This document shows, one piece after another, positions 7,386 through 25,775 of a stretch of DNA of 64,000 nt (its first letter is position 1; each line of letters starts with the position of its first letter). The notes under the pieces were generated by a model, which saw only the letters and a program-made list of their open reading frames with translations, ran no database searches and was not told the origin of the DNA. A program made the translations under genes and the position numbers. The stretch is from NCBI RefSeq assembly GCF_053078305.1, contig NZ_CP166879.1. One strand, written 5' to 3'.

Positions 7386-8147
7386 TTACCGCCACATCGC
7401 GTGTTTATCGCGATAGCAATCGACCCACATCGCCGTCGCGCCACAAACGGCAACGGGCATGATGAACAGATTAAGCAGCGGGATCATCGTAAACAGGCTG
7501 GTTAAAGCACCAAACTGCATATTGGTGATTTTGCGTGTGCGCAGGGCGGTGCGCATCTCTTTAAACGGCACTTTGTGGTTATCGAAGGGGTAATCGCAAT
7601 ACTGGATGGCTAACATCCAGGCGCTAAACAGGAACCACAGTACCGGCGCGACGGTTTGCCCAATACCAGGGATGAAGTAAAGAATTAGTAATACAATTGC
7701 GCGCGGCAGATACCAGGCAAATTTTTGCCATTCGCGTTTCATGATTCGCGGCACATCTTTCATGATACCGAAAATCCCGGTATCTGGCGGTGTAGCGCCA
7801 GTCAATCGTGCTTCCAGTTGTTCAGCCAATAAACCGTTAAACGGAGCGGCAATCCAGTTAGCAATCGTGGAGAAGAAATAGCCAAACACTAACAGCACAG
7901 AGATGACAGCCAGAGGCCACAACAGATAGCTCAGCCATTGTAACCAGTCCGGAACATAACTCATGAGAGTCGGGATCCAGACATCGAGTTGCGTAAAGAG
8001 CCACCAGAATGCGCCCCCCATCAACAAAATATTGACCAGCAGCGGTAAAATAACGAAACGCCGAATCCCAGGTTGCGAGACGAGCTTCCAGCCTTGCGCA
8101 AAATAGTAAAAACCGCTGCGTGGGGCAGATGTGAATGATGAAACCAT
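7386..8147 (-). CDS. cysZ: sulfate transporter CysZ
   Basis: 253 aa polytopic membrane ORF; upstream of cysK on same strand, divergent from zipA. Confidence 0.9.
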
Positions 8148-8376
8148 AATCAGGATGAGCTCCTTTTGACCAATCCCAGGAAAATTGTGCGTATTTTACC
8201 GGGTAATTGCGCAATGGACAGTTAGGATATGTTCGAAAAAACAGCAAAAAGCACGATTTCATCTATCTTTGTGCTGTGAAAGTTAATAGTGCACTTGCAC
8301 TTGAGGTAATCGGCAAATACTCTTAGTGAGTAAATGTTTGCCGTGGTGGCAAGGTGTTAGAACAACAGAGAATATA

Positions 8377-9375
8377 ATGATGCAGGATTTGCGTCTGATA
8401 TTAATCATTGTTGGCGCGATCGCCATAATCGCTTTACTGGTACATGGTTTCTGGACCAGCCGTAAAGAACGATCTTCTATGTTCCGCGATCGGCCATTAA
8501 AACGAATGAAGTCAAAACGTGACGACGATTCTTATGACGAGGATGTCGAAGATGATGAGGGCGTTGGTGAGGTTCGTGTTCACCGCGTGAATCATGCCCC
8601 GGCTAACGCCCAGGAGCATGAGGCTGCTCGTCCGTCGCCGCAACACCAGTACCAACCGCCTTATGCGTCTGCGCAGCCGCGTCAACCGGTCCAGCAGCCG
8701 CCTGAAGCGCAGGTACCGCCGCAACATGCTCCGCGTCCAGCGCAGCCGGTGCAGCAACCCGTGCAGCAGCCTGCCTATCAGCCGCAGCCTGAACAGCCGT
8801 TGCAGCAGCCAGTTTCGCCACAGGTCGCGCCAGCGCCGCAGCCAGTGCATTCAGCACCGCAACCGGCACAACAGGCTTTCCAGCCTGCAGAACCCGTAGC
8901 GGCACCACAGCCTGAGCCTGTAGCGGAACCGGCTCCAGTTATGGATAAACCGAAGCGCAAAGAAGCGGTGATTATCATGAACGTCGCGGCGCATCACGGT
9001 AGCGAGCTAAACGGTGAACTGCTTCTTAACAGCATTCAACAAGCGGGCTTCATTTTTGGCGATATGAATATTTACCATCGTCATCTTAGCCCGGATGGCA
9101 GCGGCCCGGCGTTATTCAGCCTGGCGAATATGGTGAAACCGGGAACCTTTGATCCTGAAATGAAGGATTTCACTACTCCGGGCGTCACTATCTTTATGCA
9201 GGTACCGTCTTACGGTGACGAGCTGCAGAACTTCAAGCTGATGCTGCAATCTGCGCAGCATATTGCCGATGAAGTGGGCGGTGTCGTGCTTGACGATCAG
9301 CGCCGTATGATGACTCCGCAGAAATTGCGCGAGTACCAGGACATCATCCGCGAAGTTAAAGACGCCAACGCCTGA
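8377..9375 (+). CDS. zipA: cell division protein ZipA
   Basis: Start placed at [26 protein letters not shown] (N-terminal TM anchor), long P/Q-rich linker, C-terminal FtsZ-binding domain; track ORF 8326 start is an upstream extension. Confidence 0.88.
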
Positions 9376-9436
9376 TACACTTAAGGCAAATTAACTCCTC
9401 TTCGAACCCCCGCTTGTCGGGGGTTTTTAGCATTGA

Positions 9437-11461
<2,025 letters not shown>

Positions 11462-12764: not shown

Positions 12765-13691
12765 ATGAATTATTCTTTAAAACAATTAAAGGTTTTCGTC
12801 ACAGTAGCGCAGGAGAAAAGTTTTAGTCGTGCAGGAGAGCGTATCGGCCTGAGCCAGTCGGCAGTGAGTCACAGTGTGAAGGAGCTGGAAAATCATACTG
12901 GTGTTCGCCTGCTGGACAGAACCACGCGTGAAGTGGTGCTTACAGATGCAGGGCAGCAGTTGGCTTTGCGTCTTGAGCGACTGCTGGATGAACTTAACAG
13001 CACGTTGCGCGATACCGGGCGTATGGGGCAACAACTGAGCGGAAAAGTTCGGGTCGCTGCCAGCCAGACCATTTCCGCGCATCTTATTCCGCAATGCATT
13101 GCTGAAAGCCATCGCCGCTATCCAGATATTCAGTTTGTCCTGCACGATCGTCCGCAGCAGTGGGTGATGGAAAGTATTCGCCAGGGAGATGTCGACTTTG
13201 GCATCGTCATCGATCCAGGCCCAGTGGGCGATCTGCAATGTGAAGCGATTCTTTCCGAGCCTTTCTTTCTGCTTTGCCATCGCGATAGCGCTTTGGCCGC
13301 GGAAGATTATGTACCCTGGCAGGCATTACAGGGAGCGAAATTGGTGTTGCAGGATTACGCGTCAGGCAGCCGACCGCTGATTGACGCAGCGCTGGCGCGC
13401 AATGGTATTCAGGCGAATATTGTGCAGGAGATTGGACATCCGGCGACGCTGTTCCCGATGGTAGCCGCAGGCATCGGCATCAGTATTCTTCCCGCACTGG
13501 CGCTACCATTGCCTGAAGGTAGCCCACTGGTGGTAAAGCGCATTACGCCGGTTGTTGAACGCCAGTTGATGCTGGTGCGCAGGAAGAACCGTTCACTTTC
13601 CACCGCCGCTGAAGCGTTATGGGACGTGGTACGAGACCAGGGCAATGCGCTAATGGCTGGGCGGGAAGGGGATCCGTTGTATCAGATATAG
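12765..13691 (+). CDS. yfeR: LysR-family transcriptional regulator YfeR
   Basis: 308 aa; N-terminal HTH ([35 protein letters not shown]) plus substrate-binding domain. Confidence 0.85.
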
Positions 13692-14023
13692 ATATCGATA
13701 TGAGTCGTATTTTCAACAGGATTTAGAAGGGATACATTCAGAGACAAACGCTGCTCTTTCTCCTGCGCCTTTTCTGCCTGCTGTCTCTGCAACTGCGCCA
13801 GTTGTGTTTCCAGTAGGGTGACTTGCTGTTGAATCAATTCGGCCTGTTTTTGCTTGTCTTCAGCACTGCCGCTAGTGTCTACAATCTCTTTAATTTGTTG
13901 AGTGAGTTTGATGATTTGCTGACTTATCCGCGCGATTTGTGAAGCAACATCGCTACCTTGTGATGCCCTGTTACTACTCTGTGTTTGTATGGAAGGAATT
14001 GAAGTTGAAGAGATAGTGGCCAT
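13682..14023 (-). CDS. FlxA-like small protein (Q-rich coiled coil, C-terminal ...HIDIYI)
   Basis: 113 aa ORF with GAGGA RBS 7 nt upstream of ATG; composition and C-terminus resemble FlxA family; overlaps yfeR 3' end by 10 bp on the opposite strand. Confidence 0.5.
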
Positions 14024-14051
14024 TGTTCAGTCCTCGTCACTGTACGAGGTA

Positions 14052-14078
14052 ATATCGGTAGAAGAACAAGGAACTTGA
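14052..14078 (-). promoter_or_regulatory. putative sigma-28 (FliA) promoter upstream of FlxA-like ORF
   Basis: On minus strand TCAAGTTC-N11-ACCGATAT versus consensus TAAAGTTT-N11-GCCGATAA, about 28 nt upstream of the start codon. Confidence 0.35.
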
Positions 14079-14110
14079 GAAGAAAAATCAATCTTACAAA
14101 TCGCAGATAG

Positions 14111-14139
14111 CAAAAAAGCGCCTTTAGGGCGCTTTTTTA
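14111..14139 (-). terminator. rho-independent terminator of the Val-Val-Val-Lys tRNA operon
   Basis: aaaaaaGCGCCtttaGGGCGCtttttt hairpin immediately 3' of tRNA-Lys. Confidence 0.7.
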
Positions 14140-14141
14140 CA

Positions 14142-14217
14142 TTGGTGGGTCGTGCAGGATTCGAACCTGCGACCAATTGATTAAAAGTCAACTGCTCTAC
14201 CAACTGAGCTAACGACC
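14142..14217 (-). tRNA. lysV: tRNA-Lys (anticodon UUU)
   Basis: Reverse complement reads GGGTCGTTAGCTCAGTTGGTAGAGCAGTTGACTTTTAATCAATTGGTCGCAGGTTCGAATCCTGCACGACCCACCA. Confidence 0.95.
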
Positions 14218-14221
14218 CGAA

Positions 14222-14297
14222 GTGGTGGGTGATGACGGGATCGAACCGCCGACCCCCTCCTTGTAAGGGAGGTGCTCTCCCAGCTGAGCTAATCACC
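14222..14297 (-). tRNA. valY: tRNA-Val (anticodon UAC)
   Basis: Reverse complement reads GGGTGATTAGCTCAGCTGGGAGAGCACCTCCCTTACAAGGAGGGGGTCGGCGGTTCGATCCCGTCATCACCCACCA. Confidence 0.95.
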
Positions 14298-14344
14298 CAC
14301 TTCGGTACTTCACATTTTTACAAGAAATTTAGCTGGTGAGAAAG

Positions 14345-14420
14345 TGGTGGGTGATGACGGGATCGAACCGCCGACCCCCTCCTTGTAAGGGAGGTGCTCT
14401 CCCAGCTGAGCTAATCACCC
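14345..14420 (-). tRNA. valX: tRNA-Val (anticodon UAC)
   Basis: Identical 76-nt tRNA-Val sequence, second copy. Confidence 0.95.
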
Positions 14421-14464
14421 ACTTCTCAATTTCTTGCTACACGGCGGAGACTACATAAAGTAGT

Positions 14465-14540
14465 TGGTGGGTGATGACGGGATCGAACCGCCGACCCCCT
14501 CCTTGTAAGGGAGGTGCTCTCCCAGCTGAGCTAATCACCC
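14465..14540 (-). tRNA. valU: tRNA-Val (anticodon UAC)
   Basis: Identical 76-nt tRNA-Val sequence, third copy; first gene of the operon on the minus strand. Confidence 0.95.
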
Positions 14541-17239: not shown

Positions 17240-17315
<76 letters not shown>

Positions 17316-17354
17316 AATTTTGCACCCAGCAAATTTGGTACGTAAACGCATCGT

Positions 17355-17430
<76 letters not shown>

Positions 17431-17469
17431 AATTTTGCACCCAGCAAATTTGGTACGTAAACGCATCGT

Positions 17470-17545
<76 letters not shown>

Positions 17546-24809: not shown

Positions 24810-25775
24810 ATGACAAAGTATGCATTAGTCGGTGATGTGGGCGGCACCAACGCACGTCTTGCTCTGTGTGATATTGCCAGTGGTGAAATCTCGCAGGCTA
24901 AGACCTATTCAGGGCTTGATTACCCCAGCCTCGAAGCGGTCATTCGCGTTTATCTTGAAGAACATAAGGTCGAGGTGAAAGACGGCTGTATTGCCATCGC
25001 TTGCCCAATTACCGGTGACTGGGTGGCAATGACCAACCATACCTGGGCGTTCTCAATTGCCGAAATGAAAAAGAATCTCGGTTTTAGCCATCTGGAAATT
25101 ATTAACGATTTTACCGCTGTATCGATGGCGATCCCGATGCTGAAAAAAGAGCATCTGATTCAGTTTGGTGGCGCAGAGCCGATAGAAGGTAAGCCTATTG
25201 CGGTTTACGGTGCCGGAACGGGGCTTGGGGTTGCGCATCTGGTCCATGTCGATAAGCGTTGGGTAAGCTTGCCGGGCGAAGGCGGTCACGTTGATTTTGC
25301 GCCGAATAGTGAAGAAGAGGCCATTATCCTCGAAATATTGCGTGCGGAAATTGGTCATGTTTCGGCGGAACGCGTGCTTTCTGGCCCAGGGCTGGTGAAT
25401 TTGTATCGCGCAATTGTGAAAGCTGACAACCGCCTGCCAGAAAATCTCAAGCCAAAAGATATTACCGAACGCGCGCTGGCTGACAGCTGCACCGATTGCC
25501 GCCGTGCGTTGTCGCTGTTTTGCGTCATTATGGGCCGTTTTGGCGGCAATCTGGCGCTCAATCTCGGGACATTTGGCGGCGTGTTTATTGCGGGCGGTAT
25601 CGTGCCGCGCTTCCTTGAGTTCTTCAAAGCCTCTGGTTTCCGTGCCGCATTTGAAGATAAAGGGCGCTTTAAAGAATATGTCCATGATATTCCGGTGTAT
25701 CTCATCGTCCATGACAATCCGGGTCTTCTCGGTTCCGGTGCACATTTACGCCAGACCTTAGGTCACATTCTGTAA
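24810..25775 (+). CDS. glk: glucokinase
   Basis: 321 aa; N-terminal ATP-binding motif [16 protein letters not shown]. Confidence 0.95.

Follow-up and report, generated by a model that had tools for sequence, protein, structure and literature searches.

The window, that is, the whole 64,000-nt stretch of DNA analysed here (contig NZ_CP166879.1 of RefSeq assembly GCF_053078305.1), carries the cell division gene zipA between cysZ and ligA. The genes of the locus and the segments of the zipA product are arranged as follows, with the segment limits taken from PMC6904479 where indicated.

7386–8147, minus strand: cysZ, a 253-aa ORF, the divergent upstream neighbour of zipA, used as a synteny marker
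8377–9375, plus strand: zipA, coding sequence of the cell division protein ZipA (999 nt, 332 aa plus stop)
8395–8460, plus strand: N-terminal transmembrane anchor, residues 7–28 (limits from PMC6904479; the hydrophobic run is visible in the translation)
8461–8631, plus strand: charged region, residues 29–85 (limits from PMC6904479; identical to K-12)
8632–8943, plus strand: P/Q-rich linker, residues 86–189, 104 residues (PMC6904479 limits shifted by a 4-aa indel)
8944–9372, plus strand: C-terminal FtsZ-binding globular domain, residues 190–332 (PF04354; PDB 1f47/1f7w)
9446–11461, plus strand: ligA, a 671-aa ORF, the downstream neighbour of zipA, used as a synteny marker

As judged from sequence, the identification of this gene as zipA, which an earlier note had made from the letters alone, is secure. 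The translated product scored 417.6 bits against the NCBIfam equivalog model TIGR02205 (septum_zipA; cut-off 119.65), covering model positions 1–284 of 284, and its residues 198–321 scored 156.8 bits against Pfam PF04354 (ZipA_C; cut-off 23). The full-length ZipA chain 9iue in the PDB was matched at E = 4e-214, and the FtsZ-binding-domain chains 1f47/1f7w aligned to residues 189–332 at E values of about 1e-91 or better. When nucleotides 8377–9375 were compared by megablast with 5,426 complete Escherichia coli genomes, zipA was matched in 5,425 of them and was 100% identical in several; in one such strain, YZMc3-1, RefSeq calls the same 999-nt CDS zipA, with the product WP_001299866.1, and isolate 23S01245-7, the closest match over 25 kb, is annotated with this accession too. 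The gene order, with cysZ divergent from zipA–ligA, agrees between the window ORFs and the annotated regions of K-12, YZMc3-1, and 23S01245-7; zipA lay between cysZ and ligA in every E. coli checked, and the zipA loci of E. albertii and E. marmotae are flanked by the same Pfam families. All defining features of the ZipA family that a sequence can reveal are present.

The mechanical ORF list reports 8326–9375 (plus strand) as a 349-aa frame opening with GTG and containing zipA; this frame runs 17 codons upstream of the annotated start, over 8326–8376. The ATG at 8377 opens a product beginning MMQDL and gives 332 aa. The RefSeq annotation, the TIGR02205 alignment, in which model position 1 falls on ZipA residue 4, and the PDB chain 9iue support the ATG at 8377, and not the GTG at 8326, as the start of zipA.

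In the zipA–ligA intergenic region, a G+C-rich hairpin lies at 9404–9428 on the plus strand, with the arms AACCCCCGC and GCGGGGGUU, a 5-nt loop, and a run of T residues after it. Its predicted folding energy is −15.5 kcal/mol (z = −3.4 versus shuffled sequences), and it resembles an intrinsic terminator or an attenuator; the consensus promoter/terminator scan of 8100–9500 did not report it. A scan of the whole window with Rfam gathering thresholds returned only tRNAs, none of them in zipA.

Elsewhere in the window, tRNA-Ala(GGC) genes with equal scores and 115-nt spacing form a tandem of three at 17240–17545 (plus strand), versus two in K-12 and two in isolate 23S01245-7, in each case between yfeC and pdeA, so that the copy number of this tandem tRNA varies. 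Between yfeR and tRNA-Lys, at approximately 13680–14140, K-12 holds about 5 kb comprising yfeN, xapA, xapB, a DUF1427 gene, xapR, and the RtT sRNA, and the tRNA-Lys/Val cluster of the window (14143–14540, minus strand) begins just about 2.7 kb past ligA. A small FlxA-like family gene replaces the xap region in the closest 25-kb match; here the genomes are polymorphic for the presence of the xanthosine utilisation cluster. For nucleotides 1–25000 of the window, the best match among the 5,426 complete E. coli genomes was 99.2% identical over the 25 kb, and 216 of these genomes covered at least 80% of the segment in one place; the exact strain or haplotype combination thus lies outside that collection.

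The product would have the layout of ZipA from N- to C-terminus, that is, a membrane anchor, a charged segment, a P/Q-rich disordered tether, and a globular domain that binds the FtsZ peptide, with the bitopic, N-out single-anchor topology adopted here from PMC6904479. In K-12, ZipA has 328 aa, with residues 86–185 forming the PQ domain, which PMC6904479 presents as an unstructured, flexible tether; the disorder is given there with reference to Ohashi et al. 2002, and its authors also argue for a domain that can be compact rather than free-ranging. Residues 1–119 of the window protein equal those of K-12 ZipA in the protein alignment, and the FtsZ-binding domain (residues 190–332) shows 100% protein identity with K-12. 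Given this identity to the crystallised K-12 domain, the window protein would be expected to bind the FtsZ C-terminal peptide and to be essential for division.

The observation that called attention to this gene was one of length: the earlier note had put ZipA of the window at 332 aa against 328 aa for K-12 and had placed the gain in the P/Q linker. Both lengths proved exact, with K-12 zipA having 987 nt and 328 aa, and alignments with K-12 located a 12-nt gap inside the linker at 8749–8760. The two units concerned are listed below.

8749–8760, plus strand: 12-nt unit GTGCAGCAACCC, encoding V-Q-Q-P, absent in K-12 according to DNA and protein alignments and pairwise gap analysis
8761–8772, plus strand: neighbouring paralogous unit GTGCAGCAGCCT, kept in K-12

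This single in-frame gap of 12 nt (4 aa) makes up the whole length difference between the window and K-12, and it leaves the linker with 104 residues (86–189) in the window versus 100 (86–185) in K-12. The order in the window reads CAGCCG, GTGCAGCAACCC, GTGCAGCAGCCT, and K-12 has the same order without GTGCAGCAACCC. The two units have the 8-nt direct repeat GTGCAGCA in common and share 10 of 12 bases, differing at two synonymous sites. Beyond the gap, six SNPs separate the two genes, of which five are synonymous and one is non-synonymous (R120 in the window, H120 in K-12).

Over residues 86–188 (nt 8632–8940), P makes up 31% of the linker, Q 25%, and A 16%, and the GC content is 67% versus 49% across the window. 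Motifs of the QPVQQP type recur, as had been noticed beforehand, and one repeat family (D1) comprises five copies of a 17-nt unit with 76–100% identity; the linker repeat copies are dispersed, with spacings of 12–66 nt. Tandem Repeats Finder, run on 8300–9400 with a min_score of 30, returned 0 arrays, since the linker motifs are too short and degenerate. A simple-sequence contingency (phase-variable) locus was also considered for this region and was rejected, there being no tandem array and the copies being 76–100% identical and dispersed.

The frequency of the two allele lengths was determined with a 100-nt probe centred on the indel (8705–8804), which matched 5,425 records. The long allele was counted in 2,379 records that matched ungapped at ≥95% identity, a band that includes a few partial-coverage matches, and thus is put at approximately 2,310–2,380 records, or about 43% of the complete genomes, O157:H7 and E2348/69 among them. 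The short, K-12-type allele accounted for 3,042 records in the 80–90% identity band, which is where the 12-nt gap places short alleles and in which all sampled rows span 88 nt; this corresponds to about 56% of the complete genomes, K-12 derivatives among them. About 68 records, with <80% of the probe covered, have other linker structures. In agreement with this, the evenly spaced sample from the full-gene search had a length of 999 nt in 13 records, of 987 nt in 16, and of 888 nt in one. The strain classes of the alleles were read from the named strains in the match lists.

Aligning zipA across strains, the check that had been proposed for the linker, revealed a length polymorphism reaching well beyond these two alleles. 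The O103 strain ML775 has a ZipA of 300 aa with a 96-nt deletion and strain EM10-18-28 one of 295 aa with a 111-nt deletion, and E. coli ZipA entries in the protein database have 298, 301, 303–305, 308–310, 314, 323, 328, 330, and 332 aa, with longer ones of 333, 335, 348, 349, 351, 354, 355, and 375 aa. Overall, natural E. coli ZipA ranges from 295 to 375 aa, corresponding to a tether of roughly 67 to 147 residues. In an aligned selection of these variants, all length differences but two fell inside the linker, the exceptions being insertions of one and three residues in the charged region; the linker changes were deletions or tandem duplications of 13–47 residues, with the larger tandem duplications seen in the 349-, 354-, 355-, and 375-aa alleles, and the anchor and the FtsZ-binding domain were essentially invariant. 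Several database entries have 348–349 aa, and the one that was aligned (P0003, 349 aa) carries a genuine linker duplication and not a start-codon artefact. In the literature searched, natural polymorphism of ZipA linker length was not described, and the matches to "zipA" together with "indel" were reference-list mentions only. The 332-aa allele itself is already known, being catalogued as WP_001299866.1 and plain in public annotation.

Three of the linker deletions are bounded by short exact direct repeats, whose positions in the window are given below.

8692–8699, with its partner at 8803–8810, plus strand: CAGCAGCC (8 nt), exact direct repeat bounding the 111-nt deletion of EM10-18-28
8741–8747, with its partner at 8837–8843, plus strand: CGCAGCC (7 nt), exact direct repeat bounding the 96-nt deletion of ML775
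8749–8756 and 8761–8768: GTGCAGCA (8 nt, exact), bounding the 12-nt deletion relative to the window allele

The presence of 7–8-nt repeats at the deletion ends suggests that the deletions arose by replication slippage or short-homology recombination. The DNA encoding the tether would provide the substrate, as it is GC-rich and full of short imperfect direct repeats such as CAGCAGCC, GTGCAGCA, and CGCAGCC, and slippage or short-homology recombination between them could gain or lose whole codons. In K-12 and about 56% of the genomes, the first unit would have been lost by a 12-nt deletion between the two GTGCAGCA repeats, with the window keeping both. In-frame variants of this kind would survive and segregate because the length and sequence of the tether are weakly constrained and zipA is essential.

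The polarity of the 12-nt change was assessed by comparing protein and DNA motifs with those of two outgroup species. At the indel site, E. albertii ZipA (331 aa) has two units, QPVQQP-QPVPQP, and E. marmotae ZipA (330 aa) also has two, HPVQQP-QPVQQP. CAA-CCN ends the first unit in the window and in the two outgroups, and CAG-CAG-CCN ends the second in the window and E. marmotae, the second unit of E. albertii having diverged (QPVPQP); K-12 retains the CAG-CAG-CCT unit alone. The presence of two units in both outgroups and the two synonymous sites at which the window units differ point to the K-12 form as derived, so that the 332-aa form is probably ancestral-like and K-12 probably carries the deletion. 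In the outgroups, the site exceeds that of the window by 2 aa, and more than one event therefore separates them from the window.

The reverse polarity, in which the extra 12 nt would be a recent tandem duplication in the window lineage and the K-12 length ancestral, is unlikely. The adjacency of the two window units, which share 10 of 12 bases, would suit such an origin, as would the larger tandem duplications known in other E. coli zipA alleles. The two synonymous differences, however, argue that the units are not fresh copies, E. albertii and E. marmotae carry two units of which the first ends with CAA and, in E. marmotae, the second with CAG as in the window, and about 43% of the genomes, O157:H7 and E2348/69 included, have the long form.

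To which extent the linker is constrained was estimated from codon comparisons with E. albertii. In the linker, 15 of 101 codons were non-synonymous, with five gap columns and 26 synonymous codons, and in the FtsZ-binding domain, 1 of 143 codons was non-synonymous, with 0 gap columns and 35 synonymous codons; synonymous divergence was therefore similar in the two segments (26 versus 35 codons). The comparison with E. marmotae gave the same pattern. By this measure, the linker is a fast-evolving, indel-tolerant spacer, which fits its description as a flexible tether in PMC6904479, and we assume the 4-aa difference to be functionally neutral. The possible compactness of the PQ domain (PMC6904479) means that length could matter more than the flexible-tether view implies.

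It could be asked whether linker length is adaptively tuned, or rapidly switched in the manner of a contingency locus, so as to fix how far the Z-ring lies from the membrane, with the 328/332 split being under selection. The wide natural range of 295–375 aa, the high frequency of both main alleles, and the debate in the literature over a compact versus an extended PQ domain (PMC6904479) speak for this reading, but the repeats are short and imperfect and form no Tandem Repeats Finder array, unlike true contingency loci, a 4-aa change amounts to <4% of the tether length, and the literature search found no reported phenotype, which together make tuning or switching improbable. We give a similarly small chance to lineage-specific selection on tether length, acting through Z-ring–membrane spacing or through the second contact of ZipA with FtsZ; if it were true, the 12-nt indel would be a functional and not a neutral polymorphism. 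The literature search turned up no study in which the length of the ZipA tether had been tested functionally.

The linker is also covered by open reading frames in alternative frames on both strands. The five listed over it are as follows, all of them taken from the ORF list and regarded as spurious.

8512–8850, minus strand: alternative-frame ORF of 112 aa, R/L-rich
8594–8899, plus strand: alternative-frame ORF of 101 aa, in the +1 frame of zipA
8603–8908, minus strand: alternative-frame ORF of 101 aa, A-rich
8778–8978, minus strand: alternative-frame ORF of 66 aa
8851–8997, minus strand: alternative-frame ORF of 48 aa

In number, these ORFs are ordinary and uninformative: six ORFs of ≥40 aa, zipA included, lie over 8512–8997, versus a mean of 4.6 ± 1.6 in the window, and a count of six or more is reached in 28% of segments of the same size. 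What sets the linker apart is the length of the open frames and the density of stops in the alternative frames. Over 8606–8850, four of the six frames are open for ≥100 codons, which holds for 1.5% of window positions, in seven segments, and stops in the alternative frames number 10 over the 309 nt of the linker versus a mean of 24 ± 6.7 in 127 other coding blocks, with 10 tying for the lowest value. Among the segments with four of six frames open for ≥100 codons, 25420–25745 alone exceeds the zipA linker in length, and it presumably marks another compositionally biased coding stretch.

The earlier note had ascribed five spurious two-strand ORFs to the repetitiveness of the codons; the ORFs exist and are spurious as it held, and the cause that it gave has to be replaced by composition. 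Synonymous re-encoding of the linker with the codon usage of the window gave means of 5.7 runs of ≥40 codons and 2.4 of ≥100 codons, versus 6 and 3 observed (P about 0.5), and shuffling the codon order of the linker, which destroys the repeats and keeps the composition, gave 5.8 and 2.5. As both nulls reproduce the open frames, composition and not repetitiveness is their cause: several frames stay open because the P, Q, and A codons (CCN, CAG/CAA, and GCN) and their complements rarely form TAA, TAG, or TGA.

That at least one of these ORFs, for example the 112-aa antisense frame at 8512–8850, is a real overlapping gene is very improbable. The three alternative frames open for ≥100 codons at 8606–8850 and the rarity of alternative-frame stops in the linker are what could be cited for it, but this openness is fully reproduced by synonymous re-encoding or codon shuffling. 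In addition, a Pfam scan of the five alternative-frame translations gave no match, a promoter scan of 8100–9500 on both strands found no promoter-like site, 33 of 47 linker substitutions relative to E. albertii fall at zipA codon position 3, and RefSeq annotates zipA alone here in K-12, YZMc3-1, and 23S01245-7. By these sequence-based tests, the five overlapping ORFs are spurious and show no sign of coding.

As for the length difference being a sequencing or assembly artefact, GC-rich repetitive coding DNA is error-prone on some platforms, but the same allele is present in >2,300 independent complete genomes, several of them 100% identical and annotated with an intact zipA, and this explanation can be practically dismissed.

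Taken together, we consider it about 90% probable that the region is an ordinary E. coli zipA in its common 332-aa allele, a linker-length variant whose overlapping ORFs are non-genic. The observation is confirmed and explained, is ordinary, and matters little. For annotation, the call of 332 aa can stand, its departure from the K-12 length being no error, and none of the five overlapping ORFs should be annotated as a gene. The K-12 reference is probably the shortened form at this linker site, and the natural series of tethers in ZipA proteins of 295–375 aa could be used by cell-division laboratories to probe how far tether length matters.

Compared with known systems, the window protein is closest to WP_001299866.1 (332 aa; strains YZMc3-1 and 23S01245-7, of the O157:H7 / E2348/69 class), which is the same protein. 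K-12 ZipA (WP_001300494.1; PDB 9iue and 1F47/1F46) is the product of the same gene with the same neighbours, cysZ and ligA, and the same domain architecture; at the protein level, the two do not differ in the anchor, the charged region, or the FtsZ-binding domain, and the window protein departs from K-12 ZipA in four extra linker residues and in R120 for H120. The C-terminal linker of FtsZ and other divisome tethers are disordered spacers. By analogy with them, the ZipA linker may be viewed as a low-complexity, fast-evolving spacer that joins a conserved globular domain to an anchoring element and in which, as in tethers of the FtsZ-linker type, indels would be tolerated while the flanking domains stay nearly invariant, although the FtsZ linker belongs to a different protein and has a different composition.
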